From Leucoraja erinacea (taxonomy: Eukaryota): 64,000 nucleotides of DNA. The notes beneath the pieces were generated by a model. The model was not told the DNA's origin and searched no databases. It saw nothing but the letters and a program-made list of their open reading frames with translations. Position numbers and translations under genes: made by a program. The DNA is taken from NCBI RefSeq assembly GCF_028641065.1, contig NC_073385.1, positions 33,294,001-33,358,000 on the forward strand. Direction: 5' to 3'. Within the stretch, counting starts at the first letter, position 1, and the number at the start of each line of letters is the position of its first letter. Positions 7,891 through 63,529 of this stretch are shown here, piece by piece.

Positions 7891-9599
7891 AAAAATGTCC
7901 ACGGTATTCTTAGATATCTAATGAAGACTCACTCTAATGTTACATAAACCTTTCACAACTCCAGTCTGGAGGTTATTAGTATTTTGATGCTCCATTATAT
8001 GAGATTAATAGTGAATACTTTTACTTTTTTATTTTTGGAAGCAGATGTCTCTGCACACCCTTCCTGGATGCCAACAAAGTAATTGGCTGAGGGTGTGGAG
8101 ATTAGTATTTGTGTGTTCACTCCTGGCCTGCATCCACAATATAAATCCTGTTATTGTGTTTGACAGCTACCTGCAACAAATTGGTAGTGCACTATAATTG
8201 CAATCTTTGTCTGCAGCAGCAGCTGCTGTACAGTCAGTGCGTGCCTGCCACACAAAACAATGGAAGGGAAAATCTTCTGCTCAGCCAGACCTAACACAAG
8301 TTGGATACATATTATAGATGTGTCCACCCACAAATTCTGATTTTCAATCAATGATAACAATCCAATCTAATCAATCTAATGCATGAAGCAGAAACCATGG
8401 TTACAATACTCTGTGCAATCAAACATTGGAACTGAAGTGGATAATTTAATCCTTGGGCCTAATACTTTCCATTTCATCACATAATAATTTTGCTGAGGAA
8501 ATATCTATCAATTTTAGATTAAAAATTATTGATTGAACTAACTGCCTGTGTGGAGTTTGCATGTTCTTCTTGTGACCATGTGAGTTTCCACTGGGTGCTC
8601 TGGTTTCCTCCCACATCCCAAAGATGTGCCAGTTTGCAGGTTAATTGAACTGCTATGGAACTGGCTTCCTAAATTTTAACAACCTTCTCTGTGCAGAAGC
8701 TTTTGGTTGCTCAACCTCTGATAGGGCTAATTCTAAAATGAATACAACTAGCTGCTCAAGATCCAGTTTGCGACTGCTCATTCACTCAAAGCCTTTAAAA
8801 ACCTTGTGAATATTATCCTTTGACGTCATCTCTCTTTGCAATTTAACCAGCACCATTCAGGCACTATCTTAACTGTAAACAACAACTGCACAATGCTTCA
8901 GTAAAGGGACTGTAGCTAAAATAGAAACTCATTGGGGTTATAGTATGTTTAGCCGTTTTATTAAATCTAAATGACAGACCTAATAGGAACCCTTGATACT
9001 TTGAATTTTCTTTAATAAATTATTTAGGTTCTTTTAGTGAGGCTCAGGAAACAATATGCACTTACTGAAAGTATATGTGGACTCAGTAATCTAATACCAT
9101 TACATAGTAACTCCAGGAATGCACTGATGTATGCTGACAGCTTTGTATAACAAGGCCAAACTTTTGACATCCAAAGAGATTCCATGCAAGATCTAATTCT
9201 ACTGACAGTCTGCTAACTTTATTTTTTTTTAGAAATTCCACACTGTTCTAGAAATAGTACTTTGTGCCGAAGGTACTAAAACTTAATGAAATGTTTGAAA
9301 TATTTACATATTCTGTTACGATTCATTCCAATTGAGCTCATTAAAGTGGAGGAGAGGAAGCATGCTAAATGTATAATATTTATTCTGTTGTATTTTTTCT
9401 AATAGACTTAAATGGTTCATCTTTCTGTATTTGGAAAGTCAGGAACCCATGAAATTGCTCTGCATTTGTAGAAAGAATGTCCAACACAAAACATTTGTCC
9501 TTCCAATATCTTGGATGTCCAGAGTCCCGTGACCCAGTAAAAAATTCTACTTGTTAGATATGCACTTAGATTAATTTGGTGACATTCTGGAATATTAAG

Positions 9600-9712
9600 C
9601 AATACACAAAGTGCTGGAGGAGCTGAAGAAAAGTCCCGACCAGAAACATCATCCATCTATTCCCTCCACAGGTGCTGCCTGACCCAGTGAGGTCCTACAG
9701 CACTTTGTGTTC
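9600..9712. mobile_element. Palindromic Penelope-derived short element
   Basis: Inverted ends acacaaagtgctg...cagcactttgtgt; internal ctgaagaaaagtcccgaccagaaacatc. Confidence 0.75.
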
Positions 9713-9795
9713 AGATTCATTTGATGTTTGCCATTATAGTATAAAAGTGTAAAGAGTGTTTAATATGTACTAACAGCAGAACAATGAAATCCTTA

Positions 9796-11720: not shown

Positions 11721-11879
11721 GGTTACACGTATGGGTTTAAATTAAATAGTGGGGGGGAGGAATTGACAAATTGGGAGTTAAAGGGGAAGTGAGTACAGGA
11801 AAAGTTACAAAAGACACCCAAATTAATGGGATAAGAGAATAAGGTCAGGGCGAATTGTGAGTGGTGTGAGAGGGGAAGT

Positions 11880-15721: not shown

Positions 15722-15900
15722 AAGTGGCACAGCTGGTAGAGCTGCTGCCTCACAGTGCCAGAGACCCAATTTGATTCTGAACTCGGGTGCCGTCTGCGTG
15801 AAGTTTGCAATTTCACTGTGTGACCCACTCTGGTTTCCTCCGAGATCCCCAAAGACGTGCAGGTTTGTAGATTAATTGGCTTCTGTAAATTGACACCTAG
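15722..15900 (+). mobile_element. tRNA-derived SINE
   Basis: gtggcacagctggtagagctgctgcctcacag head plus the SINE core. Confidence 0.8.
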
Positions 15901-15909
15901 TTTATAGTG

Positions 15910-16007
15910 AAGATAGACACAAAATGCTGGAGTAACTCAGCGGGACAGGCAGCATCTCTGGAGAGAAGGAATGTGTGACGTTTCGGGTCGAGACTTCTTC
16001 TGTCTGA
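15910..16007 (-). mobile_element. Penelope-derived short element, hammerhead core mutated
   Basis: Minus strand reads cagaagaagtctcgacccgaaacgtcac...gagttactccagcattttgtgtctatct. Confidence 0.8.
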
Positions 16008-19830: not shown

Positions 19831-21574
19831 GTATAAATACAAACAAATGTTTGTGAACAAAAACAGCATTTAATCCAAGTATCTTTGCACCAGGGTTTTG
19901 CCCAAATAATTTTCATTTTAAAGATCCATTGGACTCAATTTAAACTTTGTTATTCAGAAATTTTATATGAATGAATAATACCTTTGATGTAATTTGCCAG
20001 AGGTTGTAGCCTTTAGGCAAATATAGATTAGTTGAACTCGCTATGTAAACACTCATACTCAAACATCCAGATTGCACCCTCCTTACTTAAAATCTGAATT
20101 AATTGGGTAGTATTTGTGTTGTCTGCTGGGCATTCATTTAAATTAGGGAATTAGCATAATCACCTCACTGTGATTTGCTGTGCAACAACCTGTGAAATCA
20201 AAAATTATTCTGAATACATATTAACAATGCCAACAGGTTACCTTGTAGAGGCACCAAACATGGTGAACAAATGGGTTACTTTATTCAGGCATAAAAGGTT
20301 CGTTATACATGCACTTTGGTCCTCTAACATAAAGTTGTCGTTGCTGCAGCGAGGCTGTTGCCTCATGGGCTCGAGGTGAGCCCCTGCTGAGGGGAAGGAC
20401 ACTCACCCCAAGAGAGAAGAGAGCTGGTCAGCTCGAAGTAAGAGAGAGAGAGAGAGAGAGGGTTGTCACAGGACACACCCCTCTGTATACCAGGATGCAC
20501 CCCTGTACCCCATGACAACTCCCTGCCATTGTCAAATCACGTGACCGACTGCTGATGGTTCGTGTAGCTAGTGGCCCAATCACCGGGTGCCGCCACAGGA
20601 CCCCCCCCCCCCCACCCCCCCAGAACCAGAGGCAGGAAAACGAGTAGGCTGACAAAACGCGGCAGCCTGATTCGTAAACTCGAAGACGTCCTCACTGGCG
20701 AGTACCGCGAAGATCCCTGGGCGCTGGCTGCCCATCCGGCCCAGCAGCGGGGTGGAGCCTTGGCCGGTCGTGAGTCGGCGGTACCGCGACGGATTCTCGG
20801 GCAGCTTCCTGCCTCCGCCGAGGGCACGGCAGCGCAGCCGGCCTCCTACGACACCGGCGATGGAGGATGGAGTCCCTACCTGCAGCGGTGGGGCGAGGCC
20901 CATCGATGCCAGCTGCCAAAATGACCACCACGGCCTACTCCCATATGGCCGCTGCAGCGACTACAAAAATGGCCACTGCTGCCGGAAGCAACGCTCAACC
21001 TGCCAACCACCGTCATCAGCGCCACCTCTGGTCGAGTGGTGACTCTGCAACCCGTCTGCCGTCAGCAGCACCACCTCTGGTAGAGTGGCGTCTATGCAGC
21101 CTGATCAATGTCTACAGTGCCACCCCTAGTCAGTTGGTGTTACTACAGCCTCCAGTTTCAAGCACAGCTAATCCAACCATTTTGTTCATTGCTGCACCTT
21201 TGCTGTTTGCTCACTGTAGTTTGTTTTTTTTCCACTGTACACTGGAATTACCTAGCTTAATATTACTGTTAGTTTCTTGTTGTTGTATTTGCATTGTTGC
21301 CAACGGCTTTCTCAGGTCCCGATCCCCTGCTGGTTGACGTGACTGTTCTATACCTCATCCGTCCTGTGGCTTTTGCGTTGGTCTTCTTGCACCCCTTGGC
21401 ATACCTTGGGATGGCCCACATCTGGAGCATTGACTGTGCCCACAGGCCCCACCGTCCCAACCCACAGCTGGGATGCCCCCGACCTACAGCAAGAGCCGCT
21501 CTCGGTCATGCTCTGCAGACAGCGCTGCATCAGCCTTCATATTGAGAAAAATGCAAGTTCTGGGGTCTCACGTA

Positions 21575-21670
21575 GATCACAATGTGCTGGAGTAACTCAG
21601 CAGGTCAGGAAGCATCTCTGCAGGACATGGCTAGGTGATGTTTCAGTTTGGGGCCTTTCCTCAGACTGTT
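21575..21670 (-). mobile_element. Penelope-derived short element
   Basis: Minus strand reads cagtctgaggaaaggccccaaactgaaacatcacc. Confidence 0.7.
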
Positions 21671-24199: not shown

Positions 24200-24365
24200 A
24201 GAGACATCAGGAACTGCAGATGCTGGAATCTTAAGCAAAGCAACAAAGTGCTGAACTCAATGGGTCAGGCAGCACCTGTGGAGCGAATGACAGGAGACAA
24301 TTTGGGTCAGAACCTTTCAGAAGTTTGACCTGCTGAGTTACTTCAGCACTTTGTGTTTTGCTTGA
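24200..24365. mobile_element. Degenerate palindromic Penelope-derived element
   Basis: ggaactgcagatgctggaatc...caaagtgctg...cagcactttgtgttttgc. Confidence 0.65.
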
Positions 24366-26900: not shown

Positions 26901-27749
26901 TCAGGATAATAATTGGTAAATACCTAAGGATGAGTATGAATCATGCAACAGATTGTACAAAGGCATATTTTTTGGAATTGAGAACAGAATGTTGGAAAAC
27001 AAAATGGACAATCAATTGTTAGCAATGAAGCAGAGCACCAACAGGAAACATTAAAGCCTTCTTCAGGTCCTGGATAGTATATTCCATGAAAATGTTAAGC
27101 ACTTGTTAAAGTAAGAAACTACTGCTGAATAAATAAATGAAGCAGACAGTAAGAAAAGCAGTATACTCAATTTTTATGGGCAATTAAGGGTAGTGTGACA
27201 AAACGGAATAGTAATAGAATGTAGCAAATAGCAACAATAAAATGATATTATCAATGAGTGTAAAATGGTGGTGGAGTATTCTGCAGGGACCTAAATAAGA
27301 AGGTCATGCCAGGAGATGAAGAACGTTACAGTGAGAAAGTAGGACAAAAACTGCAAGCAGCTTGGCAAAATGACAGAAACATTGAATAATTATTTTACTT
27401 TAGACTTTGACAGGGAGAGAAATGCAATTGGCATGAGGGTTAGAAAATGAGATGAGAGTTTAGTTGGTTACATTCCAAATAAAAGGCAATGTTGATACAG
27501 TAAATAAATAAAACTAATTTGAAGTGATAAAAGCTCCTGGTCTGGTTGCATTTTCATTCCTCTCCATTTTAAAAGAATGTAGGAAGAGAAAGGAGAGGAA
27601 CTGCAAATATTCAATAATTTATTTGAAGACACTGCATTTCCTGCCAAGTAACTAATATAATACTACACTGAAAAGGTAAACAAGAACATGGCCAGGGGAG
27701 CAATGGACAATCTAGATCAACTTTTAATGGAAAGGAATGTGATGGTCTA

Positions 27750-27955
27750 CATAGGTAGACAAAAATGCTGGAGAAACTTAGCGGGTGAGGCAGCATCTAT
27801 GGCGAGAAGGAATAGCTGACGTTTCGGGTCGAGACCCGTCTTCAGTCTGAAGAAATGTCACATATTTCTTCTCCCCATTAATGCTGTCTCACCCGCTGAG
27901 TTTCACCAGCATTTTCATCCATCTTCAATTTTTCCAGCATCTGCAATTCTTTCAT
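27750..27955. mobile_element. Palindromic Penelope-derived element
   Basis: Inverted arms aaaatgctggagaaacttagcgggtgaggcagcat and atgctgtctcacccgctgagtttcaccagcatttt, centred on tcttcagtctgaaga. Confidence 0.85.
27818..27845 (-). ncRNA. Candidate minimal type I hammerhead ribozyme core
   Basis: Minus strand: CTGAAGA-C-GGGTCTCGACCC-GAAA-C-GTC, i.e. CUGANGA, palindromic stem II, GAAA, loopless ACGU stem III, GUC triplet. Stem I is weak. Confidence 0.6.
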
Positions 27956-28420: not shown

Positions 28421-29915
28421 TCATGCTGCCTCTGAAAAAGAGCTGACATAATTAAAGACTTGTCCCACCCTGCTTATTCCTTCTTCTCCCTGCTCCTCTG
28501 GCAGACGGTACAGAAGCTTGAAAATGTGCACAACCATACAGTCATAGATTCCCATCAGCCCAACTTTCACATGTTGACCAAGGCTCCCCATCTAGTCCTG
28601 TCCGTGTTTGTCGCCTTTGCCTCTAAGCCTTTCCTGATCATGTACCAGTCCAAATGTCTTTTAAAGGCTTTGGAAGTCCATGTATTTTAACAGCCACATT
28701 TACTTTGTCTGTTGGATAGTTGGTTGGGTAGACAAGACTTGTCTCAGGAACAGCTTCTCCCCTCTGTTATTTGGCTTTTGAACAGTCCCTTCATAAGCTA
28801 GGGTTTGTCCGGTTCATATCTACCTCATCGCGGACATTGGACGTTGTCTATGGAACTGGTGCACTAGTTCCCTAGTTATCTCCCCTAATTCTGAGAACTT
28901 TATTCTGCACTTGTATTTTCCCCTCTGCTCTACCTATTGTATTTGAATTTGACTCAATTGTATTTATGATCTGATATGTTTGGATAGCTTGCAAAATAAA
29001 GCTATTGTTACACCTGACAATAACAAACCCAAACTTAAAACTATTTTAGAATCATGCCCTCTAATTTATTTTACCTCTCCCATCTTTCCTCCCAGTATGT
29101 AGCACCGCATTTTTTTCAGCATTACAATTCACCTTTCACTTTCACCTATTCCAACAGCCTGGCCATATAATGAAGTCCAATAATATCTCCCTGCAATCTA
29201 CTGTACCTTCAAATTTTGACAAAGGCAAATTTGGAAATTATGTCCTGCACACAGAAGCCGCAGTGAACAAAATATTTTGATGGACCTGTGATTCTTCTGC
29301 AGATACCTGGGAGATTCTACATCTCCCTCTAGTCACCAAGCACCACTATTCTGTTTCTACTTACCGGACCAATGTATCATTCATGACACTGCAATCCATT
29401 TTCTGCCATGGTCTTTAATCCTGACGACAAGCTATTTTGTGATACATTAACAAAAGACTTGGATGCCCATGTATTTTACCAGCCACATTTTCTTTATCTA
29501 ATGTATCAACTCTGTTACTTAGTCAAGGAACTATCAGGTCATATAGATAAGATTTTTCTTTAACAAATCAATTTCCCTTTTAGTAATTAATTGACATGTG
29601 TCCAAATGACTGCTTATTCTAAATCTGAATGTTTTTCTAAATAGTTCCGCTCTACCGCGGATGAACTGACTGGTCTGTAGTGCCTGCATTTATTTTTTTG
29701 AACAATGTGTAACATTTGCAAACTTCTAGTTATCATGTACCACCCCCAAATGCCTGAATAATTAGAGGATTATGGTCTGTACCACTCCCATTTCCTCTCC
29801 TACTTCATTTAGTAGACAAGCATGAAAAGCCCAAGTGATTTTATTTAAGTCGCGTATAGCTAGCCTTTCTAAAGCCTCTTCATTGTCAATGTTTAGCCCA
29901 TATATAATCTCAGCC

Positions 29916-30053
29916 AAAGATAGACACAACATGCTGGAGTAACTCAGCGAGACTGGCAGCAACTCTGGTGTCTCGACCCAAAACCTCACCCATTCCTTCC
30001 CTCCATAGATGCTGCCTGTCCCGATGAGTTACTCCAGCTTTTTGTGTCTATCT
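29916..30053. mobile_element. Palindromic Penelope-derived element with central deletion
   Basis: agatagacaca...gctggagtaactca and tgagttactccagc...tgtgtctatct. Confidence 0.82.
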
Positions 30054-30054
30054 C

Positions 30055-30330
30055 CAGAACCAAAGATCATAATTTAAGGTGAGAGGGGAAAGCTTTAATA
30101 GGAATCTGGGGTAATTATTTACACTCAGCAGGTGGCGGGTAAATGGAACGAACTACCAGAGGAGGTACTATATTTATAAGTTACTTGAATAGATACATGG
30201 ATAGGGAGGGTTTAGAGGGATGTGGACCAAACATGGGCAAATGGGATTAGCTTAGATGGGGCATCTTGTCAACATAGGGTAGTTCGGCCGAAGGGCCTAT
30301 TTCTGTGCTGTAGGGCTCCATGATTCTATG
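30055..30330 (+). mobile_element. CR1 3' end
   Basis: tttaaggtgagagggga...ggccgaagggcctatttctgtgctg. Confidence 0.75.
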
Positions 30331-35185: not shown

Positions 35186-35257
35186 AGTTGTACACAACCC
35201 CCCAATGCCCAGAACCGTGACTTTCCATCCGAAAAAGGGTCTCAACCTGAAACATCA

Positions 35258-35573
35258 AGTCAAGTCAAGTTACTTTTATTTCTATAGCACATTTAAAAAC
35301 AACTCTCGTTGACCAAAGTGCTTTACATTGGTGGAGGTACTAACGTTATACAACATTGGTTCATAGATTAAGTACATACATATAGCCCTCACTCAGAGGA
35401 TGTCAAGAAAGGCTTGAGAATAAAGATGAGTTTTAAGTCTTGACTTAAAAGAGTCGATGGAAGGGGCAGTTCTGATGGGAAGAGGGATGCTGCTCCACAG
35501 TCTAGGAGCTGCAACCGCAAAGGCGCAGTCGCCTCTGAGCTTATGCCTAGACTGCGAGATGTTCAGTAACCCC
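35258..35573 (-). mobile_element. L2-clade LINE 3' end
   Basis: RGDCAFAVAAPRLWSSIP...FKSRLKTHLY; tail gtaaagcactttgg...tgctatagaaataaaa; TSD AACATCA at 35251-35257 and 35574-35580. Confidence 0.9.
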
Positions 35574-36054
35574 AACATCACCCATTCCTTCTCTCCAGAG
35601 ATGCTGCCTGTCCCGCTGAGTTACTTCAGCATTTTGTGTCTATCTTCGGTTTCAACCAGCAACTTCCCTTCAGCCATCAGGTTATTAAACACGACAACAA
35701 ATAAGCTCTGAACTGCAACAGACTATTATTATTATTATTGTACTATAATTGTTTGTTTTATGAGTATGTTTATATGTGTGTGTTTATATACACACTGAAC
35801 TTTTTTTCCTTTTGTTTATGTACTATGTTTACATATTCTGTTGTGCTGCAGCAAGTAAGAATTTCATTGTTCTCTCTGGGGCATTTGACAATAAAACACT
35901 CTTGACTCTTCCTACACATCCCCCAATGCTTTATCTGCGACAGCTATGACTGCATCGGTGCTCCCTGCTGGACCTGAGCAGAACTTGTTGCGTTCATTAG
36001 CATCATCACAAACCTCCACTCTGCCCACAAGTTCACCACTAACTTTCACCCTTC

Positions 36055-36545
36055 AAATTCATGTGGCCTTCCGTACATCGGCGAGACCAAGCATAGACTC
36101 AGCAGCTGTTTTGTCGAACAATTACACTCGTCGCGCCAAGGTATACTGGATCTCCCCATTGCTAACCATTATAACTCTGCTTCCCATTCCCGTATTGACC
36201 TTTCTGGCCCGGTCTTCTTCCATTGCCAGAGTGCGACCATACACCAACTGCAGGGATAACATTGCTTTTCAGCTTGGGTAGCTTACTATCCAATTGTGTG
36301 AACATTGAATTCTTCAATTTCGTAAACCCATAAAAACCTCTGTCCCTCACCTTTCTCCCCCACACTCCTCCCCCAGATTTCTTTCCCTCCCCCTCCCATG
36401 TGCCCCACCTGAACTTGCACCTACTTCTCCTTTCTCCCGTCCCCTCCATCCATATTCCTTCCTCTAGCCTCACAATTTGGAACTCTTCAAGCCTTTTGTC
36501 GTTCACCTGTTTTAATCTTTGGCCTTTGACCCAACTATCTTCTTA
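36055..36545 (+). pseudogene. Penelope-like GIY-YIG endonuclease C-terminus and 3' region
   Basis: CGLPYIGETKHRL...LPIANHYNSASHS...NIEFFNF, then a pyrimidine-rich tract. Confidence 0.8.
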
Positions 36546-37085
36546 TCAACATCCAAGCTTTTCCAAGGGAACGTGAAGTGTATTTTGGGTCAATTGATGG
36601 GGAGTCTTTTCTTTGTGATGGATTGGGCTACATCTACAACTCTCCACAGTTTTGTGCAGTCGTGGGCAGAGCTGTTCCCAAACCAAACTGTGATACATCC
36701 TGACAGTATGCTTTCTACAGTGCACCTGTAGATATTTAAATTAGTCTTTGGAGACATGCTGAATTTCGTCAGTTTCCTGAGAAAGTAGAGGTGTGGTTTA
36801 GCATCATGGCTGCCACTTCCATGTGGTATGTCCACTGATCATTGGTAAACTTAAAATGCTGGAGTAACTCAGTGGAACAGGCAGCATCTGTGGAGTGAAG
36901 GAATGAGTGACGTCTCGAGTTGAGACCCTTCTTCAGACTGATATTGCCTCCAAGGAACTTGAAGGTCTCAACCATTTCCACTTTGGCACCATTGATGCTG
37001 ATTAAGGCATGTACTCCACCATATTTCCTGAAGTCGATAACTAGCTTTGTCTTGCTGACATTGAGAGAGTGTTTGTTATCCTGAG
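36545..37085 (-). mobile_element. Rex1/Babar RT C-terminal fragment, interrupted by a Penelope-derived element at about 36855-36942
   Basis: VETFKFLG; HLYFLRKL...YRCTVESILSGCITVWFGN. Confidence 0.85.
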
Positions 37086-41920: not shown

Positions 41921-43979
41921 TATTTTTTATTCAATCAAAATGATAATGAGTTGAAATTGGTTCATGATGTGAATGCAACGAGACATTTCAAAAAAAGAGT
42001 TGTTGAACCAACCAAACCCAACAATGTTTCAGACAATTTACATGAAATGAAACATTTGCATGAATCCCACAGAAAAAAAATAATGACTTTTCCTTCTCTC
42101 TCCAGTAGTTAATACTTCTGTCTATTTATACAATTCCATATTTTTTTCTTCTTTTCCAGTTGTAGAGTCTGTGGCGTACAGAGATAAATCATAGAAAAGG
42201 ACCCATCACCCCGATTCTTTAGGAGAGTCCCAGCTCTGTCTATTCCTTCCATAGACATTGCCTGACCCACTGAGTTCCTCCAGTACTTTGTGCTTTGCTT
42301 AAGACTCCAGCATGTGCAGTTCCTTATGTCTCTGACCTTTCACCCTGTTGAGTCTATGCTGGCCATCAATCATCCATTTACACTAATCCTTTGTTACCAC
42401 ATTTTATTCTCCTACACCCAGATTCCACCTATCAACTATGACGGTCTATTATATGGACATTTGAGTGGGAAACCAGGATTCAAAGAATGAAACACTTTCA
42501 TTCAATCTTAGAGGGATTGTCAGGAAGGTGTCACATTACACATGGTCTCTGTAAAACAGTAACAGAAATATCTGGAAAGGCTCAGCAGGTCAGGCAGTAT
42601 CAGTGGAGGGATAAGAAGAGTTGACCTCTTAGGTTTGCATTCTCACCTTTTCAGTTTGGATGAAAGGTCACCAACCAAAAACATTGTTCCTGATTCTTGC
42701 TCCAACAGAGGTTTAAGTTTAAGTTTAGATTTGTTATTGTCACCTATATCGAGGTACAGTGCCATCCAATTAAGTCAAATGATAATATACATCAATACAA
42801 TCAAGACATACCCAAGTACAAGTACAATAGATAATGCAAAGGGAAAGATACAGAGTGTAGAATATAGTTCTCAGTATTGTAGTGCACTAATTTCATAGAC
42901 AAAATCCAATGTCTACAATGGGGTAGAGGTAAATCGGTCCATACCCCAGTTTATGGGGGGACGTTCAGAAGTCTGATAACAGAGTGGAAGAAACTATTCT
43001 TGGTTTTGGTGATGCATGGTTTTGTGCTTTTGTATCTTCATTCAAACGGGGGCGAGGAGTGGAATGAATGACCAGAGTGGGTCAAGTCTTCGATTAGGTT
43101 GGCTGCTTTTCCGAGGGGGCGTGAGGTGCAGATGGTAAATGGTGGGGAGTCTGGATTGTGTAACAGTCTGGGAAACATCCAAAACACTCTGCAATTTCTT
43201 GCGCTGCTCGGCTGGCTTGGTTCTGTTTTTATTTCAGATATCCTGCTTGTGGATTACTGCCTCTTTGTAAATATAGATGCACACAATTAGTCTAAGATTC
43301 AGTATATGAGGACATCGTTAGTAAAGTTTCATACATGTCTGGATAATTAAAATTATCTTTCTTGGCAAAGCTGTCCCTCGGAGCAGAGTAGTAGATAAGT
43401 GTCCTACCAGGGCTATGAGTGAGTTATGGGTCTTTCAAGCAGGTGAAAGGTGGCAATGACTCATAGCCACCAATAAAATATCCTTTGCATAATCTCTTGT
43501 GTAGAACCAAACAATAGACATGTTTCATTTATCCTTGCTGACTGTTCTGTCAGAGGGCTTGTCATGAATAGTTCCAAGTGTTTTTTTTATTATTGCAGCA
43601 GCTCTTTGTTTAGTCCATAGATACTCTGGGATCATGAAAGCAGAAAAGAAGCGAAAATAAAGCATTACATTAAATGACCCTCCTGTACCATAAATTTCAG
43701 GAGACGCTTCACACTGCTTCCTGCAATGTGATTCCAAGTATATGGGATGCGCTCATTTAGTAAAAAGATTACCTACTATCTGCTAAATATTTTTGCCTTT
43801 TATATGATGCAACACAGACTGTAATATTTTCAAAACATTTGAATTGATGCTTTATGAAGATTTATTGCTGTGCATTTTCTATTGAATTCACTTTTGACAG
43901 GGATTAAACTATTGCTGATGATTGACAGCAGCCCTAAGATATACAGTTGAACAGATACTGCCACTGACTTTAACGGACT

Positions 43980-44110
43980 AGTCTGAAGAAGGGTCTCGAC
44001 CCGAAACGTTACCTATTCCTTCTCTCCAGAGATACTGCCTGTACCACAAAGTTACTCCAGTATTTTGCCTATCTTTGGTTTTAACCAGCATCTGCAGTTC
44101 CTTCCTACAC
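43980..44110 (+). mobile_element. Penelope-derived short element
   Basis: Hammerhead core followed by acctattccttctctccagagat...ccagcatctgcagttcc. Confidence 0.82.
43983..44010 (+). ncRNA. Candidate minimal type I hammerhead ribozyme core
   Basis: CTGAAGA-A-GGGTCTCGACCC-GAAA-C-GTT; only about 2 bp of stem I are evident. Confidence 0.58.
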
Positions 44111-44521
44111 ATACTGACATTACCTGGGACAGAAATGGGCATGAAAGAGGAGTGGAGTTCTTGGGCTCACCATGATCATATTGACTGGTGGAGCAGGCTT
44201 GAGAGGCTTGCTGGCATACTTCTGCTCCTACTCCTGTTTTCTTATGTTCTAAGAAGGGTAGGTAAAAGGTGAGACAAACATCATATCCTTTTCATGCACT
44301 GAACCATGTTGCGTTAAACCTTTGCGATATGTTTTATTTGACATCCTCTGCCCCATACTTTTAGTCTATCAAAAGTTCCCAAGAATGGGTATATGACCAG
44401 TAGGAGAGGATAGCAGGTTGTTTGGAAACAGAGATCATTTACAAGGAGAATCAAGCAAGTAATAATCTTGCACTAAACATTATTCCCTTTACCATGTATC
44501 TGTACACTGTGGATGGCTCGA

Positions 44522-45048: not shown

Positions 45049-46409
45049 ATTATAATCATGTATAGTATTTCTGCTGAATGGTTAGCATGCAGAAAGTGCT
45101 TTTCACTGTACCACACTACACATGACAAATAACTAATCTAGCATGGACAAGGTGGGGCATGCTGTAAATCTCTGTGACCCTATGACTATTTAACACTAGC
45201 TTCCATCAATAACATTATTTTAATCCTCATTACTGGTACAATCCTAGTAAATATCTTCTGTCCTTCATATCCTTCATTGTGTCTGGTGTCCAGTAATGGG
45301 AACATTGATATTGTAGATAAGGGACAATTCGTGTTTTATGTGAGCCATGTTTTAGATCCTGGATCAATGCTGTTTATAAGTTCTTTGATTCTATATGCTT
45401 TTTTCACTCCTTCGTTCTTCTACCTTCAAAGATTTGTCAACAATTACCAGCTGGGTCTCTGTTTTCTTAGATAAGCCTTATAATTGTGTTGTACATTCAC
45501 TTTCATTCTCATTCTTTTTAGCAAAAGTTAGCACTTCACATTTGAGTGCATGTAATGCCATCTGACACAAGGAATTTCAGATGTGGAATCTTGAGCCAAA
45601 CTGAGGATCTCAACGGGTCAAGCAGCATCTGCGGAGGGAATGGATGTGAAGTTTCGGGTCGGGACCCCTTTTCCACAAACTGTTGAGTCAGTAAGGCATA
45701 CAAAATATGTCTAATAACCACTTCTTGAAGTCACATGCCATTTCCTCACTTGTTTAAGTCAGCCTTATATGTTGTGTCATTGGCTGATATGCAAATGTTG
45801 TCTTTAATTGCCAAGTCCATGTCATTTGAGCTGAATATTTCCCACAGTTGTTTCTTTAACAGTTGAGATTACTTTGTTTGCTGCTGGACTCTGGCTTCCT
45901 TGTATGCCAGGTCTACAAAGTAGTGGCAGTAGCATTGTGGAAGGATACAGAAGCTGGGTGCTTTCAGTTAAGAAGTGCAGAACAGTGAGTTTTTTTTTTC
46001 TTGAAGTGTATTTACTTGTCAAATGCACCAAAAATGGAAAATTGAAATTCTTACTTGCAGCAGCAAAACAGGTCTGTAAACACAGTACTCGTCGATAACA
46101 CAATTAAAAAAATAGTTAATTAAAGCAAAAATCCAATATTAGTGCATGCCAAAAACCCCAAGTTCCCAACACAACCAAGAGAGTTCATAGTTCATAGTTT
46201 AGTTGGTGTTCATAGTGTACTCCCAATTACTTTTAAACGTGAAACAACAGAGATAAAAAGTGACTTCTGTTTAAAGATTTTGATTACATTCAGTTTCCCA
46301 TTTTGCTGATCTGCATAAGGTAAGATATTAAAAAGTTAATTGTTTTTTGATTGCATTATTGAAAAATACACCATGGAAACTGGGCCTTCAGCCCATTCAA
46401 AACACACTA

Positions 46410-47260: not shown

Positions 47261-48596
47261 GCCCTTTGTTCGTTTTAATTTCTTCATCAAATAATTCCCT
47301 CTGCAAATTACTTCTGCACTTATCAGTATTCAGCTTCATAATAATGAAATTGTTAGCAAAAAAAAGCCTGAAAATGTATGTATGTGGACAAATAGATAAG
47401 AACGAACACCTTTTCCTGATTTTCACTGAAGGGTGAACCACTCAGCCAAATGATTATGGCTCGAAGCATTAATCTCTGCCACAATAGATCAGTTCATACT
47501 TGGTTCTCACATTGTATAATGAGAGTGACATATATCCGCAGGGGTGCACAATAGAGATGACAAGCTTGTGACACATCTTTAGGTTTTCAGCAAGACAGAA
47601 GCTGAAGTCCAGTAGGAATATATTTTCAGCACCAGGCACAGTAATTAGAAGTGAAAATAATTTGCACCAAGACAGGTCCCAATGGAGGAAAAAATACTAT
47701 TTACAATTTTGAATATTTATCAAATCGTAAAGTGCATGATGGATATTTGCCCAAAGTTGTGTGACAGGTTTTCCATTACGTCTGCATGAAAAGGATATGT
47801 CAAAGTATACTTTGGGCCTTACCAGCACGGCTGTTTGTATTGCCATTCATCTTTATTCACCATCCCTCTCCCCATTTTCTAGACCTGCCAAATAAGAGAA
47901 ACTCAAAAGAAGCAGTGTAAGCAGAAATAGGCTATTTAGCTTGTCATCCCTTCTCTACCATTCAAGAAACATGACTGATTTCTCACCTCAACACCACGTT
48001 CCCCATATCCCAAGATTCCAATAGCATCCAGATTGACACACCAAACCTGCATTCCTTTTAATAACATAGAACGGTACAGCACGGGCCTTTTGGCCTACAA
48101 TGTCTGTGCCAAACATAATTCCAAGACAATCTAATCTCATCTAGAAACCTTTCAAATGCAACTATCATATCTGCCCCCAGGATCACTTTCCACTGCCATC
48201 TGTAAAAATTAGCTCCGCACATCTCCTTTAAACGTTGCCTCTTAAAGTTATACACTCTAGTTCTTGACATTTCTGTTATTATGATCAATGATTGTTAATG
48301 AAGGCTTATAAATGCTATTTGATGAATCAGCGGTCCGTATGCACAAATGAGTGCAGAACACAGGTGCTGCTGCTTCATAGCTCCAGAGATCCAGCTTTAA
48401 TCTTGGCTTTGGAGTGTGCATGTTCTTGCTGCAACAAGGTCTCTGGTTTGCTTCCTCAAGCCAAGGACATGATGATTGGTGGGTTAATCAGCTGCAGAAA
48501 CTTGTCCCAAATGTAGGTGGGTCCAGAGAAGTTGGGGGGGAGTTGATTGGGGATACAAGTGAGACGAGTAGGATTAGGGCTTGAATGTATGGACAG

Positions 48597-49125
48597 GTTG
48601 AAGAAGGGTCTCGACCTGAAACATCACCCATTCCTTCTCCCCAGAGATGCTGCCTGGCCCGCTGAGTTACTCCAGCATTTTGTGTCTATCAGCATTGAAT
48701 TTTCCAGTTTTAACTGGCCTTCCTCCTCTCCTTAACTGTTTCCCAAACTCCCCTCCATCCCCAGTTCCTCACATTATCCTGTCATTATCCTTCCCATCCC
48801 CTGTATTCTTCCATCTTTATCCCACCCTCTGGCTTTACATTTCACTCTTCTTCCCTCCTTATCTGATTTTTTTTCTCCTTTTCACCTCTCGCCTTTGTCA
48901 CTTAGTCCACCTATCTGCCAATCACACTCTCCCCACCTGTATCCACCTATCACTTGTCAGGCTTTGTCTTGCAGTCACCACTTTTCTAGCTTTCACCCCA
49001 GTACCAAGGTCAGATTGAAAAAGGGTCCTGACCCGAAACATCATCTATCCATCCCTCCACAGAGGCTGCCTAAGCTGCTGAGTTCCTCCAGAACCTTGTG
49101 TTTTGCTCAAGGTTGCAACATCTTA
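48597..49125 (+). mobile_element. Tandem Penelope pLTR-like segments with two degenerate hammerhead cores
   Basis: ttgaagaagggtctcgacctgaaacatc (about 48598) and ttgaaaaagggtcctgacccgaaacatc (about 49015), separated by a pyrimidine-rich tract. Confidence 0.72.
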
Positions 49126-49600: not shown

Positions 49601-50599
49601 ATGTTTTTTTCCGGAGAATCTGCAGTTCCTTTTGTCCCATATTATCTGTTTGTTGATAGCAATTTAATTACAATCGCTTTAATTACTGCAGCCCCATCTG
49701 TAAATAGTTTCACATATTTTACATGAGTGTAATATTGTCAATATTGACAAAGCAAAGGTTTTCCAGCCTACACTCTTCTAGTGTTTACTTTCTCTTGAAG
49801 TTGTTTAGACAATTGCAACTGTGGAAATGAAAAAAATCAAATAGCGAGGAATTATTTCATAATATTGCAATCACCTTCAGTGTTTTAGCTCTGATTTATT
49901 CTTTACAAACATATTGATTGAGGCTGTTTATTGAGAACATAAATGGCATAATGTTTGACTAAAAATTGTTAAACAATCGTTTACTCACTGAATCCAAGTT
50001 TCAAATTGTCGTTGAATCGAATTGAATGCTGTTTGCTGTCTAAAGATATTTTCTGTCGCCGTCAGTAATATAGATATTTACAGATTAATTGGCCTCTGTA
50101 AAATTCCCCCTAGCTTGTGGGGGGTGAATGCACTTGTAGGATAATATAGAACTAGTGCAAACAGGTGATCAATGGCTGGTATGGACTGGGTAGGCCAAAG
50201 GACCCGTTCCTATGCTGTATCTCTTAATCAATTTGCATTCACAATTGCAGTAAGGCTCCTCATTGCCCACTGAGGCTCGGGAACAAATCAAAGAGCATTT
50301 TAAGTAAAGACAGGAAACTGCTTTAAGAGATGTTTATAGCCAGCCCTGCCACGGATCAGCTAGAATCGAACTTCAATGGATAGTAAGGCTTTTTTTCATC
50401 TGTCAAAACATTTATTTGCGGAAGAAGCTTATCCAGAGGGTGATGGGTGAACCTGGCTTTTAAGCATTAACTTGAATGTCAAAATAATATTGATTTGAAA
50501 TACTCTGTATACATCTATCAACAAACAGGATGCCCAGTGTATTATCAGTAAGGACACTGATATCTAAGACAGCAGATGTACCAGGATGTGACCTGCACT

Positions 50600-50800
50600 T
50601 CAACACAGCGTGCTGGAGGAACTCAACAGGTCAGGCAGCATCTTTGGATGGAATAAACAGACTGTGTTTTTAATTAAGACTCTTATTCAGACCCAATCCA
50701 AAATATCTCCTGCCCATTCCCTCCAAAGATGCTGTCTGACCAGTTGAGTTCCTCGAGCATTTTGTGTTTTGCTCTAGATTCCAGCATTCACAGTTCTCTG
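50600..50800. mobile_element. Degenerate palindromic Penelope-derived element
   Basis: tgctggaggaactcaac.ggtcaggcagcatctttgg and ccaaagatgctgtctgacc.gttgagttcctcgagca. Confidence 0.72.
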
Positions 50801-52420: not shown

Positions 52421-53989
52421 CTCATTTCTTTTTCAAGATTCTTTTTCAAAGAGTTACTGATCCAAGCAGCAGGTCATTTATGTAAATGGTTCACGAGTCA
52501 ATGAATTAACAACCTCAATACTCACGCAAAGAAGCCCAAATTTCTTAATGCAACCAAGATAGTCCATAGGTCATAGTTTGCATTTTGTCATATTCAAGAG
52601 CCTGATGGTTGTTGGGAGGACGCTGTTCTTGAAGCTGGTGGTCACAGTTTCAGCTCCTGTGTCTTCTACCCGATGGCAGCAGTGTAATGAGAGTGTGGCC
52701 AGGATGGCATGGGTCTTTGATGTCATGCTATGCAGCCTCCACAAGCACTGGTAGCATTTCAACCAACACAGGTTTATTGGGAAATTCAAACTAAAATCTT
52801 TCTTCTATGCAACATTGCAAATTAATTGCCTCTCTATAACTGGGATTGTCATATGTTCAAACCTCTGTTCAATCAACTGCACAATAATTAAGGAATGGGA
52901 AAACTTACTTGCAAGTGGGATTTTCAAATATTGAAGTAGGTTTTACTGCAATTTGTTTTATTCAATCTTGGCAAACCAAACTCAAAATCCAATCCTACCA
53001 TTGTAATTGACAAATTCCTGGGAATGGAAACCAATCTGAGCATGTTAAATAATTCAGAAATGTATTAATCTACATAATATAAGAACAGCCTTTTATGCAT
53101 GAAGACATGTTCAGTGGCCGTTAAAATACAAAATATTCTGGAGAGAAATAACAAATACTTAACTGGAAGACAAAGAAAATTAATTGATCGATTGAAAGAT
53201 ACAACATGAAAACTGGCCCTTCACATCGATGATATTCCCGTCCCCACATTCGCATCCACTCCCTACATACTGGGGGCAATTTACAGAGGGCCGTGCATGT
53301 ACCTTTGAGATGTGGGAGGAAACCAGAGCACTGGGAGGAAACCTATGTAGTCACAGGGAGAACGTGCAAACTCCACATTGACAGCATCCGAGGTCAAGAT
53401 TAAACACATTGTTTCTGGCGCTGCGAGGCAGCAGCTCAAATCAAATACATGCCTCTCTGTTGGATCATTTTGTGAAGATATGAATGAATTTTTAACTTTG
53501 CCTTATTATGGTGAACACCATACAAATTTCTCCGGATGATTTACCCAAAAATAAAAAAATACTGCTTAAAAAACACAATATAATTTGGGATTTATAAAAT
53601 GCCTTTAAAATAGTGAACAACCCCCAAGTTACTCTGCAGACGTGTTACCACATAATTGCCCAGAGTTAGTTTATTTAGGGTAATTTGAAAAAGTTGAGTT
53701 ATTGGTCAATAAAATATGTTAATGCTTAGTCATGCATAAAAAATGTACCTGCATAGTTCTCAGCGATGGTGACCTGCAGAGAAGACAGTTGTTACGGATT
53801 TTCTCAAAGGTATCTTAAGGAGCTGGTGAGAGATCTCTTGAAACAATACTTGATCTGTATTCCTTCTGTTGATTCTTGTCGGTGGCATTTGGGTGTGTGG
53901 TTGATGGAGGTGCTCAATGATTCTCTGATTTCTAGTATCAGGATACTATTTCCAACTGTTTAGTTAGTTCGTTTATTTATTTACAACAA

Positions 53990-54280
53990 AATACACAAAG
54001 TGCTGAAATAACTCAGCTGGTCAAGTCACATCTCTGGAGTACATGGATAGGTGATGCTTTGGGACGGGAACCGTCATCAGACTGATTGCATTGCGGAGGA
54101 AAAAGCTGGAAGTGAGGTGGGGTGCGGAACCAAAGCTGGAAATAGTATCCTGATACTAGAAATCAGAGAATCATTGAGCACCTCCATCAACCACACACCC
54201 AAGTGCCACCAACAAGAATCAACAGAAGGAATACAGATCAAGCTGGTAAGTGATTGGTCAAGCTGGTGGACACAGGTGAG
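53990..54280 (-). mobile_element. Penelope pLTR-like fragment containing a templated insertion
   Basis: Minus strand cagtctgatgacggttcccgtcccaaagcatcacc is a degenerate hammerhead core. Confidence 0.65.
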
Positions 54281-57200
54281 AGTTTATTTATTGCTACAAG
54301 TACAGAGATACAATGAAATGCTTGTACTGCATGCTATCGTGTCAAATCAAGCTATACCAGAATACAATCGATCCACTGCAAGAACAACACACAGAGTCTT
54401 GTCACATTCCACCGCCATCTTGCAACTTACAAGTCTCTGAAATATCCAACATTGAACCAAGGAAACAAGTAATTTCTTATTTCCTCAATTTAAGGGCTAA
54501 TGTCCTGGCAGCAGCGGAACAATGAAGTAAGGGTCAACCTGGTCCAGCGCGATGTTGTCATCTCGAAGGGCAAAATGGCCTCCTCCTGCACCTATTTTCT
54601 ATGTTTCCTTCTAATGCTGCTCCGTGAAGCTGCCACAGGCTTTGCTTGCTTCATTCACTCACCCAACTGCTGTAGAGCCTCCCATCGCTACCTCCGCCAA
54701 CACCATGAACCGAGACCACTGCAAACGCACTGCCCATCATCTCCATCAGCCGTCCCTAGGGTTCCGTGCACTAAGGTCACCATGTCTTCCTGAACTAATC
54801 TAGGAACTCACAGGCACTTTCCCAGGTAGCTTGAGGTGAGTTCATGGACTGGTCTTAATTTCCTTCATCCACTGCATCTCCTACAAACAGTTTGAAAAGC
54901 TCTGATGTATTATAACAAACAATATGCAGATGACACATACCCCATGGCCTTTTTCCTCGAATAATATCTGTAAGGCATCACCTCTATCGCTGCACCACCC
55001 ATTTATTTTTCAAGTTTATTTTTCAGTGTTGCTGATCCAAGCAGCAGGTCAATTATGGAAATGTTTCATGAGTCAATGAATTAACAACCCCAATACTCAC
55101 GCAAAGAAGCCCACAGTTCTTAATGCAACCAAGATAGTCCATAGGTCATAGTTTAGTTTGCATTTTATCGTGTTCAAGAGCCTGATGGTTGTTGGGAGGA
55201 AGCTGTTCTTGAACCTGGTGGTCACAGTTTTCAGCCCCTGTGCCTTCTTCCTGATTGCAGGAGTGTAATGAGAGTGTGGCCAGGATGGCATGGGTCTTTG
55301 ATGTCATGCTATGCAGCTTCCACAAGCACTGGTACTATTTCAATCAACACAGGTTTGTTGAGAAATTCAAACCAAAATCTTTCTTCTATGCAACATTGCA
55401 AATTAATTGCCTCTCTATAACTGGGATTGTCATATGTTCAAACCTCTGTTCAATCAACTGCACAATAAATTGAGGAATGGGAAAACTTACGTGCAAGTGG
55501 GGTTTTCAAACATTGAAGTAGGCTTCACTGCAATTTGTTTATTCAGTCTTGGCAAACCAAACTCAAAATGCAATCCTACCATTGTAATTGACAAATTCCT
55601 GGGGTTGGAAACCAATGCGTCACACAGCCACGAGGAAGTCTGTATCTTCTGTGACGAGTACTGTGAGGGATTGAAGCTTACAGAGTGATGTTATTTTCAT
55701 TCCAGCAGCAATTAGAACATAGAACAGTCCCTTGGCCCACACAGTCTGGGACAATCATGATTACACACTTGTCAGAAAATGGGAGAATAGTTTTTATTTA
55801 GTGAAAAAAAGAACAAAAAGTTAAGTTACTTTATGAGAGAAATCAAGGATGAAAGATTACAGCAAAACATTGATCACTGATTAATTATTTAAAAAATGTA
55901 ATATTCACATGTAACCATTGAATCACAGTATTTCAAAGACTGTGGGTGTTGTGAGTCATTGAAACACTTTGGTTTCTGTCAGATTGCTTCTCAGTGTGTC
56001 CTGTTAAGACCTTGAATAAACTGACTTGTTTGAGAATTTTAACACTGCTCAACAAGATTTTCTTTATGTGCTATCCTGATCTGAGCCATAATTAAGAGAG
56101 TAAATGGGTCCCAGATGAAAGCCAGATTCACAGTACAAGTCAAACACAATTATCTCCAACAAATATCAATATAGATTGTGCTCATTCTGTTGTGGTAACA
56201 TTTTGTTGGCTGAATGAAACAGTGAAAAGTATATGGTTTCCCTATGTTTGGAAGAATGGGTGTCAAGAGACAAGAGTTCTTAATTGTCAAGGAAAGACAC
56301 AAAAAGCTGGAGTCAGACAGTATCCTTGGAGAACATGGATGGGTAATCTTTATAGTCAGGATACTTCTTCAGTGCCTATCCTTTGTAAACCAGTATCTGC
56401 AGTTCCTTGTTGCTACAATCTGTGTTTAATTGTCATATGTACTGACAATGGAACAATGACATTCTTACCTGCGCCAGTACAATAGACATGTAAACGCAAT
56501 GCTTATAAATTAGGTATAATAAACAAACATTCAATAAACTAATAACTGCAATGCAAGTGCGAAAAAAAATGTAACCAGAGACAGTCCATAGCAGTTCATA
56601 GTAGAGGTCAGTGCAGTGAAGTCTTCAAGAGTCAGATGGTTGTTGTGAAGAAGCTATCCATGAACCTGCTGGTCACGTGCCCTTGGTAACTGAGACTTCA
56701 GCTTACTCTGACCTTCAAACCAGTTTTTTTTTTAACCATCCTCTCTCTGATGCAGAAATACATTTACAAACTGGAACACAATCCCAGTGCTATTAGCTCA
56801 GAAGCAGAGAACTTGGATGTGGACCAGGGCTTGCCAGCACTGCAAGAACATTCAATTCAATCCAAGTTTCCACACAATTATTCAATATTTTGATAATAGA
56901 TCCAAAAGCACAGTAACAGTGGAGTTTAATTTGTTAAGGCCACTTTATTTGTGAGTTTTGTGAAAAAAATTAATCCAGGATACATTGATTTAAGCTACTG
57001 GAGCTTCTTGGTTTAAAAGCTCATACTGATTAAATAATGAATTTAGAACAGTTCTTTTATTACACTCTATTGTTAACGTAATGATGATAAATTGTTGCAA
57101 GTGATTATTAACTCTGGTTTTGGAGGGTTTTGTTGCAAGACACTGACAAGAAATCATTGAACCTAATTTACGAGATAGTTTCGAGACCAATGTCAGTTGT

Positions 57201-59900: not shown

Positions 59901-59997
59901 AGATAAAGTATCAAAATATCAAAGGTACACAAAAAAGCTGGAGAAACTCAGTGGGTGCAGCAGCATCTATGGAGCGAAGGAAATATCAAAATATCAA

Positions 59998-62025: not shown

Positions 62026-62029
62026 CTTA

Positions 62030-62700
62030 AGCAAGCACAAAATGCTGGTGGAACTCAGCTGGTCAGACAGCATCTGTAGAGGGAAGGAACAGATGGCATT
62101 TCAGGCTGGGACCCTTCTTCAGACTGATTGGAGCAGGGGGCAGAAAGCTGGAAAAGCGAATTGGGGAGAAGACAAAACCGGGCAAGTTATAGGTGGAGAC
62201 ACAAGGAATTGCAGATGCTGGAATCCTGAACAAGGCACAAAGTATTGGAGGAACTATGCAGCTAAGGCAGCATCTGTGGGGGGAATGGGCAGACAAAACT
62301 TTGGGTCAGGACTCTTCATTGGACAAACAGGGGATATAGTTGGGAGGGGGTGGGTAGGGGTTGATTGGCAGAAGGTGAAGTACGTGACAGAGGTTAGAGG
62401 TGAAAAGGAGACAAAAGAATATCAGATAAGACGAGGAGAGCAGGGATAAAATGTAAAGACAGAGGAATGAATGTGGGTGGACAGGGGAGGGGGGAACACT
62501 GGGGGTCAAGGGAAATGGGCAGTATACAAAGATGGGGAAGGAAACAGGGTTATGGGGGGGGGAGGAGAGATGATGAGAAAATGGGAATGCACTGTAGTGA
62601 GTTGGGGTGCAGTTTAGGAATAAGATGTTGGGGGAAGCTATTACTTGAAGTTGGAGAAACCAATGTTCATATTGTTGAGTTATAAGTTACGCAAGTGGAA
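62030..62700 (-). mobile_element. Nested Penelope 3'/pLTR fragments
   Basis: Minus strand MNIGFSNFK at about 62670, a purine-rich tract on the plus strand, and cagtctgaagaagggtcccagcctgaaatg at about 62097-62126. Confidence 0.72.
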
Positions 62701-62999
62701 CTCTTTTCTTCTCTGCTGGATCTATAAGTACTTTCTGTTTTTAATGCATCCAAGGCCATAGACTTTGGAGTCACGACTAGTGCCTGTGACTCAGGCAGGC
62801 TATACGGATGAGAACCAAGTCTAAATCTTTATAAGGATCACTTCATTCCAGCCAGCATTTGTGAAGCTGCAACAAGTCTTGATAGTGATCAATTTCAGTA
62901 GCTAGTGCTTCTTACAGCCTTACAGACATATAAAAATCCTGTCTTTGGAAAGTATTATTAAAACTGAAGATCCAGGGAACTACATATGGTGGTTTAAAA

Positions 63000-63175
63000 A
63001 AGAAAACACAGAGTGGCAGAATAATATGGCAGGTCAGGCAGCATCTTTGGAGAACATGGATCGGTGATGTTTTGGGTCAAGTCTGAAGAATGGTCCCGAC
63101 GACAAACATCACCTCTCCATATTGTCCAGTGATGCTGCCTGACTGACTGAGTCGCTCCACTATGTTGTGTTTCTG
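63000..63175. mobile_element. Palindromic Penelope-derived element
   Basis: Arms gtcaggcagcatc and gatgctgcctgac around gtctgaagaatggtcccgacgacaaacatc. Confidence 0.72.
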
Positions 63176-63529
63176 TTTTATCAATACAATTGAATTCCTT
63201 TACATTTGATTGAGAATTGGCAGAAAATAAACAAACATGAAGACAAATGTCAGTTAGGCTCTTGTGCATTCATTCACTTCTTGTGCATATGTGGTATAAA
63301 TATATACGCTCAATCAACTCTGAAGATTGGTGTCTTCATGTATAATTTCAGCATGCTTGTGTAAGAGGAAGACCACTTCACCTAACCTATAATGACGAAC
63401 ATCTTGCAGGGATTTTCCACAGAGGGACAGAGTGGTGCAGCAGGTAGAGCCTCTGCCACACAGCACCAGAGACCCAGGCTTGATCCTGATCTCGAGTGCT
63501 GTCTGTGTAGAGTTTGCACGTTCTCCCTT

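Follow-up and report, generated by a model that had tools for sequence, protein, structure and literature searches.

The window analysed here, a stretch of 64,000 nt of skate (Leucoraja erinacea) DNA, carries on its plus strand, at 43980..44112, a solo stub of what is almost certainly the terminal repeat (pLTR) of a Penelope-like element (PLE), with a minimal type I hammerhead motif at its 5' end. The motif is not free-standing; it forms the first ~30 nt of a repeat of ~105-140 nt, that is, ~105 nt starting at the motif at 43983-44010 plus an optional tail of ~35 nt. The stub, tail included, has the A of AGT as its first base, 3 nt upstream of the core. As a sequence-only reading had described, the core reads CTGAAGA-A-GGGT-CTCG-ACCC-GAAA-C-GTT. 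The 5' strand of stem I, GU (43981..43982), pairs with 44011-44012 over 2 bp only, and is followed by the core box CUGAAGA (C3-A9; 43983..43989) and by one extra unpaired nucleotide between A9 and G10.1 (43990..43990), typical of metazoan PLE minimal hammerheads (PMC4209133). Stem II, GGGU/ACCC, has 4 bp and a CUCG loop (43991..44002), and the GAAA box, the loopless palindromic stem III (ACGU), and the GUU triplet occupy 44003..44010, with cleavage predicted after 44010. The remaining pLTR (44011..44074) extends to the first of two 3' end classes (+89 to +99 from the core), and the optional tail (44075..44112) to the second (+117 to +128), as in other PLEs (PMC11167929). At this stub, no upstream pyrimidine spacer and no exact target-site duplication (TSD) of at least 8 nt were found.

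The second intact core reported earlier, at 27845-27818 on the minus strand, was also confirmed (CTGAAGA-C-GGGT-CTCG-ACCC-GAAA-C-GTC). It lies in a copy at 27741..27849 (-) that is one arm of a head-to-head fold-back, the partner arm being at 27827..27928 (+), and the predicted hairpin has a free energy of about -100 kcal/mol. The stem I of ~2 bp given for these motifs therefore holds at 43983 and fails at 27845, where it has 0 bp within the fold-back. A repeat profile was seeded with six window copies and then refined on genome samples. It recovered all 12 decayed positions of the earlier reading and gave 27 matches in the window, two of them with an intact core, a 4-bp stem II, and the stem III pair. 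By contrast, the covariance-model search that had been proposed as a check detected no Rfam hammerhead family in the window at E<=1, and its three weak matches were all unrelated.

The other copies in the window are decayed or partial. On the plus strand, a decayed copy with a pyrimidine spacer was found at 5467..5566, with a decayed ORF end (N-x-x-F-S-N-F motif) near 5120, together with a solo copy in which C3 is changed to U (48594..48694) and a copy with a spacer and a broken core box (49011..49119). The motif noticed near 35230 is the 5' piece of a single plus-strand copy at 35229..35659 that is split by an insert of ~320 nt (pieces 35229-35258 and 35574-35659). The insert itself (35258-35574) has the 7-mer AACATCA at both ends and one 82% match elsewhere in the sampled DNA. 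The minus strand carries decayed solo copies at 15899..16006, 21568..21668, and 36841..36940 (GAAA box broken), a partial copy at 45602..45673, decayed copies at 53982..54084 (with spacer) and 56287..56372, a 3' fragment without the hammerhead part at 59918..59982, and two decayed same-direction copies at 62026..62323 (62323-62216 and 62126-62026), with a decayed ORF end near 62667. Head-to-head pairs, all decayed or lacking the 5' core box (the latter at 29905..30063), were located at 24221..24365, 50586..50786, and 62988..63190; a decayed plus-strand copy with a short inverted arm lies at 9585..9721, and two partial copies lie at 42235..42640 (42235-42312, +; 42640-42554, -). The copies or arms at 24221-24365, 29905-30063, 42235, 42640, 50586-50786, 56372, 59982, and 62323 are additional to those listed earlier. 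A decayed remnant of the endonuclease end of a PLE was found at 36062..36330 (+), with 56% identity over 48 aa to the ORF of locus L082.

Apart from PLE sequences, the window contains a Tc1-type transposase remnant broken into two frames (60029-60732, -; HTH_Tnp_Tc3_2 and DDE_3) and broken pol pieces resembling those of LTR retroelements (32870-35154, -; RVT_1 and RT_RNaseH_2 matches), among which an integrase-like frame gave no Pfam match. At 11305-14535, 25778-26923, and 37924-39294 lie decayed fragments of LINEs that match RVT_1, with a piece of an esterase-like ORF1 (OSK / Lipase_GDSL_2); we take them to be of the CR1 type. A GC-rich trinucleotide tract lies within a GC-rich repeat at 39964-40022, and an array of ~60-nt tandem units occupies 3942-4661.

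The earlier expectation that the genome holds a very large number of motif copies proved correct, with ~870,000 repeat copies and ~94,000 intact motifs. A sample of 1.264 Mb chosen irrespective of the repeat, consisting of 100 spaced 10-kb stretches and a 264-kb block around the window, contained 502 repeat matches. The 100 stretches held 3.96 copies per 10 kb, which corresponds to ~868,000 copies genome-wide (759,000-976,000), and the number of intact motifs, by our own descriptor of intactness, was extrapolated from 43 in these 1.0 Mb of random stretches. At a mean copy length of 100 nt, 870,000 copies would make up ~4% of the genome. The exact 27-nt core was matched 17,209 times in the genome (8,602 on the plus and 8,607 on the minus strand) and a second 27-nt variant, with stem II GGGU-UUCG-GCCC, 22,673 times, together 39,882 exact matches. 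The reversed pattern gave 0 matches, and the profile search over 864 kb gave 344 matches compared with 0 in reversed sequence; a chance origin of the motif was therefore dismissed. For comparison, ~4,000 motifs are given for coelacanth and ~9,000 for Xenopus (PMC4209133).

The motif belongs to an element with a recognizable order: an ORF (reverse transcriptase [RT], CX4CxxC linker, GIY-YIG), a stop codon, a spacer, the hammerhead, ~70 nt, and the optional ~35-nt tail. In a search made with the decayed reading-frame end, the motif lay 80-112 nt past the stop codon in 25 of 30 endonuclease-matched loci, and the intervening pyrimidine-rich spacer of ~80-115 nt ends in CAG. The 658-aa frame of L082 matched RVT_1 (E=7e-7) and GIY-YIG (22.7 bits against a cut-off of 22.6), so that RT is followed by a C-terminal GIY-YIG in a single frame, as in endonuclease-containing (EN+) PLEs; both fragments of L008 that were searched gave no Pfam family, and matches came only from the longer L082 frame. 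Named homologs of the element protein were from sharks and rays. Also as in EN+ PLEs, we found pLTRs from partial tandems, inverted 5'-truncated arms, an optional tail, and variable TSDs. The C-x4-C-x2-C linker falls within the CX2-5CxxC pattern of the Neptune and Nematis clades (PMC8557442) and thus places the element in the combined Neptune/Nematis type.

Comparison with described elements was in line with this placement. According to the account of Neptune/Nematis-type EN+ PLEs by Craig et al. 2021 (PMC8557442), they have in common with the skate element the RT, the CX2-5CxxC linker, and the C-terminal GIY-YIG, and likewise carry two cysteines in the interval from GIY to YIG and show a tail, partial tandems, and inverted arms truncated at the 5' end, whereas the long proline-rich N-terminal region here is unlike them. 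The CX4CxxC linker is absent in Penelope/Poseidon as these are described. The hammerhead shares its boxes, extra base, G10.1-C11.1 pair, and palindromic stem III with metazoan PLE minimal hammerheads, including those of fish Xena, Poseidon, and Neptune, which likewise reside in the pLTR and occur mostly as solo or opposite-strand copies (Cervera and De la Pena 2014, PMC4209133). Its stem II has 4 bp compared with 7-8 in Schistosoma, and its stem I has 2 bp compared with 4-5 in Schistosoma and 2 in D. virilis (PMC4209133).

A young family of the element was found as partial tandems of a ~3.9-kb unit with 94-98% identity (L191, L198, and L200). In full 3.9-kb units, the tail continues into an ATG 164-167 nt past the core; none of the six units checked had a single open frame from this ATG to the RT. 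In the Poseidon element PAc of Anolis carolinensis, by contrast, the ORF starts inside stem II (PMC11167929). An ATG inside the hammerhead was rejected for the skate element, in which A9 is followed by another A in 235 of 250 copies and the ATG lies 164-167 nt downstream. Rearranged pieces were also observed: a segment of 173 nt from the PLE ORF is repeated in tandem about 20 times between two inverted PLE bodies at L206:2952-6703 (G000:C438), and head-to-tail arrays of ~66-nt units at L090:6422-7071 and 9481-9770 (G000:C22) cover model positions 25-92, beginning at the GAAA box and lacking CUGA.

We then considered the ends of the insertions. Among 188 solo copies that reach the core, 79 had a spacer-like flank and 109 did not. 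The 109 spacer-less copies matched A(-3) in 69%, C(-4) in 38%, and T(-5) in 35%, then fell to background. Solo copies start 0-6 nt before the core, at TCAGT, with ragged 5' ends (0 to -8) and no single start base. Genome-wide counts of the young core fell from 22,673 to 14,978 with AGT, 12,598 with CAGT, and 9,695 with ATCAGT upstream; with inverted junctions counted, the match ends within 6 nt upstream in 57% of exact young cores (9,695/22,673 keep ATCAGT). Of 30 young loci judged by eye, 11 extend at least 70 nt into the spacer and none ends between -8 and -70. Of 293 starts, 5 fell at model positions 31-35, around the cut site, compared with 36 at 16-30, and the cut site thus shows no accumulation of starts. 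The 3' ends fell into two clusters, +89-99 and +117-128. TSDs of 8-14 bp were present in 27 of 99 solo copies, compared with 3.9 in shuffles, and in 17 of these 27 the end lies no more than 8 nt from the core. The 502 matches included 83 head-to-head pairs, 5 tail-to-tail pairs, and 17 direct tandems.

We somewhat favor an origin of the stubs as run-off cDNA from uncut RNA. Because the copies start near TCAGT and show no pile-up at the cut site, the template RNA was likely uncut. TCAGT is presumably an initiator-like word, judging from the consensus. The related TCACT has been termed Inr-like in a rotifer pLTR (PMC3846280). In the proposed scheme, RNA polymerase II would start at TCAGT and the RNA would begin ~3 nt before the core, which would leave a stem I of 2 bp. 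The endonuclease would nick the target, with RT starting internally on the RNA, near +95 or +125; in anole PAc the tail is defined by a pair of internal RT start sites, which match the two 3' ends seen here (PMC11167929). RT would copy the uncut hammerhead and run off the 5' end of the RNA to give a cDNA of 100-140 nt, which could integrate alone, be re-copied as an inverted arm, or switch to the 3' repeat and so yield the spacer plus ORF and partial tandems. Hammerhead cleavage would be a minor, protein-gated side route.

Several described systems bear on this scheme. PAc likewise has a pLTR hammerhead, two 3' end classes, and a tail of 30-40 nt, and the parts of its description considered here likewise give no sign of cut RNA as template, RNA-seq ends being absent from the site (Frangieh et al. 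2024, PMC11167929). Accounts of D. virilis Penelope and rotifer pLTRs (PMC2377424, PMC3846280) likewise describe head-to-head inverted pLTRs with palindromic junctions, and an antisense self-priming model for head-to-head pairs is already published (PMC3846280). The D. virilis Penelope pLTR is described as having an internal TATA-less promoter with an initiator and an intron end at helix I; its start site lies upstream of the intron, whereas the solo 5' ends here point to just before the core (PMC2377424). Whether the stubs are strong-stop-like cDNAs that map the start site of the element and show how its pLTR is rebuilt appears evenly balanced; among the papers listed by a literature search, with subscription journals mostly outside its reach, none on PLEs used the term "strong stop".

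The main rival to run-off is a splicing origin of the sharp 5' edge, since the bases of TCAGT fit an acceptor (TCAG|T makes a good one) and the intron of D. virilis Penelope ends at helix I. PLEs are known to keep introns. The spacer would then be an intron, as in D. virilis, and a lariat or spliced RNA would stop RT. The element has a donor-like GTAG/GTTAG at the stop codon, a pyrimidine tract, and a CAG acceptor; the donor of this intron-like spacer overlaps the stop codon in two subfamilies (e.g., L191:5007-4888, minus strand), and several junctions retain 6-8 nt of spacer. In some subfamilies CTGAC/CTGAT directly precedes CAG, which we take from the consensus to be branch-point-like. The intron in D. 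virilis begins 46 nt past the start site (PMC2377424) and reaches to the 5' end of helix I (PMC4209133). However, an exon-junction pattern searched genome-wide gave three matches, none a GT-AG splice product, and spliced retrocopies were therefore rejected. Positions -4 and beyond are absent from most solo copies, and no such joint was seen among the 15 listed of 159 in RNA reads. Judged by empty-site homologs (9 copies) and by TSDs, the flanks directly adjoin the stub, and capture of a host exon at the acceptor was rejected as well, no exon lying between target duplication and stub. We consider splicing an unlikely source of the edge.

CUGANGA, GAAA, NUH, the extra base, G10.1-C11.1, and the palindromic 15.2-16.2 were all present in the focal copy and in four subfamily majorities, which agrees with the earlier description of the motif as a minimal type I PLE hammerhead with a loopless palindromic stem III (ACGU). 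The four subfamilies take in 242 of 253 near-complete copies, at a divergence of 6-19% from the respective majority. Each of the four keeps the 11 core bases without exception, together with the G10.1-C11.1 pair, ACGU, and GUH; the variable columns within the motif are loop II, a U-A/U-G pair, H17 (C/U), and 3' bases of stem I that still pair with U2.1 and G2.2. Pair changes were one-sided only (U-A/U-G in stem II; U-A/U-G and G-C/G-U in stem I), and no two-sided compensatory changes in the stems were seen across the four subfamilies. A mutual-information scan of the copies returned subfamily markers and no new base pairs. The tail is complementary to a conserved AGATGCTG block (window 44030-44040 / 44086-44095; L191:4840-4770), with an 8-bp helix predicted in the young family as a candidate RT-binding structure.

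Since the four subfamilies retain all 11 core bases, the sequence comparison suggests that the master elements were under selection for the motif and likely used the ribozyme. The difference in invariance between the core (11/11) and the downstream block (36-38/53) is borderline (p=0.03-0.05), the downstream block being well kept too. The near-equal invariance of that block speaks for a rival reading, in which the motif merely looks like a hammerhead, is no functional ribozyme even in the master, and is kept as a promoter (initiator plus downstream element) or a protein-binding RNA. Three further points agree with it: most published minimal hammerheads have a longer stem I, of 4-5 bp, hammerhead mutants are reported to have left in vitro insertion unaffected (PMC11167929), and GAAACGTC is similar to RGACGTGY, the downstream element of Penelope (PMC2377424). 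The 11 core bases, G10.1-C11.1, the extra base, and the palindrome nevertheless fit the published pattern, the changes between subfamilies avoid them, and H17 is C or U (G in 4/244), so we regard a purely non-catalytic role as rather improbable.

A further reading is that the stubs form a separate SINE-like or retrozyme family, with its own short RNA, the PLE enzyme, and a ribozyme that processes multimers into circles. The discrete length, the TSDs, and the very high copy number are compatible with it. Animal non-LTR retrozymes likewise derive from pLTRs, are non-coding, and carry a type I hammerhead, and they are reported from one cartilaginous fish (Li et al., bioRxiv 10.64898/2026.07.22.740005). 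They need at least two tandem units with the full motif, whereas in the random sample such a neighbor lies within 300 nt of none of the 47 intact copies; one exception was found among 30 selected loci, a direct tandem of two full 103-nt units at L021/L022. There (G000:C1:2477692 and 2477795), two full motifs lie 103 nt apart with an inverted arm before them, a candidate natural dimer. Direct tandems are few against head-to-head pairs (17 and 83 among 502 matches), core variants are common to solo and ORF-linked copies, the CUGA box is missing from the 66-nt arrays of L090, and starts at the cut site, which circles or cut monomers would give, were not found. A separate retrozyme family is thus very doubtful.

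The sequence-only reading went on to propose that the dispersed sites could cut host pre-mRNAs. Our results do not support this: few copies are intact, none has a near partner, stem I is weak, and the CpGs decay neutrally. Of the 502 sampled copies, 276 extend over the core, 87 retain the two boxes together with the triplet, and 47 are intact. Stem I has 2 bp in 26 of these 47, 0-1 bp in 15, and 3-4 bp in 6; at 2 bp, helix I fits only the short variant (D. virilis), as against the standard 4-5 bp. An intact same-strand partner lies within 300 nt of none of the 47 and within 1 kb of four, and 12 of the 47 are in fold-backs predicted to form long hairpins. In the focal copy, the pairing probability of stem I was 0.0005-0.0013 in a folding model of secondary structure only. 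The double-hammerhead fold reached -5.9 kcal/mol compared with -19.9 for the best dimer, 14 apart in models that omit tertiary contacts, and the ACGU self-duplex contributes only -1.7 kcal/mol. A longer stem I or a stable whole-stub fold was rejected, the folding z-scores being 0.10 and -0.30. For published PLE hammerheads, the monomer is described as inactive and the dimer as weak (PMC4209133).

An excess of core conservation across copies, which activity had been expected to leave, was largely absent, the core being conserved only between subfamilies. Core CpGs, one of which holds the essential G12, were kept as CG in 108/246 and 105/246 copies (43-44%), and non-core CpGs in 109/248 and 114/239 (44-48%). 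A counter-signal came from the GAAA adenines, with 55/1,047 mismatches (5.3%) compared with 149/1,741 (8.6%) at non-core adenines (p=0.001), and from all non-CpG core positions (6.9% compared with 8.9% non-core, p=0.002). Because the non-catalytic extra A12 was mismatched at a similar rate (15/250, 6%), we read the adenine retention as run context plus alignment-edge bias; some weak retention of intact core adenines may exist. Purging of G12 was considered and rejected: CA exceeded TG at that CpG in two subfamilies (36:15 and 33:14) and not in the other two (3:8 and 15:18). Since a non-core CCG in a subfamily with this excess is skewed in the same way (CA:TG of 22:11), the excess is read as sequence context.

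RNA reads of related organisms covered the stub of the young repeat deeply and in both directions (85% likeness), with no pile-up of read starts or ends; this is weak evidence, because cut ends are lost from such fragmented libraries and broken copies supply most of the reads. In run X21, read coverage of the spacer and the end of the ORF (L191:4956-5283) was ~2-3 times higher in one direction, whereas the stub was balanced; possible causes of the skew are library effects or selection, in transcripts, against the strand that bears the acceptor.

That intact stubs are live ribozymes cutting host pre-mRNAs, as trans dimers via ACGU or when bound by protein, is highly improbable on these data. 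The ~94,000 intact motifs, the abundance of the repeat on both strands in polyA RNA of related organisms, the slight excess of intact core adenines, and the activity of the anole hammerhead once protein is present (PMC11167929) speak for it. Against it stand the -1.7 kcal/mol of the ACGU self-duplex, a stem I probability of <=0.001, the lack of partners near intact copies, the loss of G12 at the neutral CpG rate, and, weakly given these fragmented libraries of related organisms, the flat profile of read ends on the young repeat. The anole hammerhead is described as cutting only with the element protein (PMC11167929), and a protein-switched network, in which the PLE RT-endonuclease of the germ line and early embryo would fold hammerheads in host pre-mRNAs or 3' UTRs and so trigger cleavage at ~90,000 stubs, is scarcely probable; if true, such cutting of host RNA on demand would be a new layer of gene control, and the evidence points away from it. 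The dispersed stubs are very probably inert by-products that decay like neutral DNA.

The link between hammerheads and PLEs, the solo and opposite-strand copies, and the tails are already published. Cartilaginous fish are not named in the main-text part of PMC4209133 considered here, and our search, with subscription papers mostly outside its reach, found no paper on a hammerhead ribozyme in elasmobranchs; the supplements of PMC4209133 and of the bioRxiv report may list such motifs. Overall, the feature is real and unusually numerous, and cleavage of host RNA is unlikely. It is probably the hammerhead of a Neptune-type PLE that likely cuts only in the master RNA, with the element's protein or a second copy, and the stubs are likely inert.

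The skate genome thus provides a very large instance of the known hammerhead-PLE association, in which motif counts overstate the number of live ribozymes. The young family, at 94-98% identity, is a possible system for protein-assisted cleavage assays. Its hundreds of thousands of insertion ends form a dataset on the role of the hammerhead in Penelope transposition, and these ends point to an uncut template that ends just before the core.
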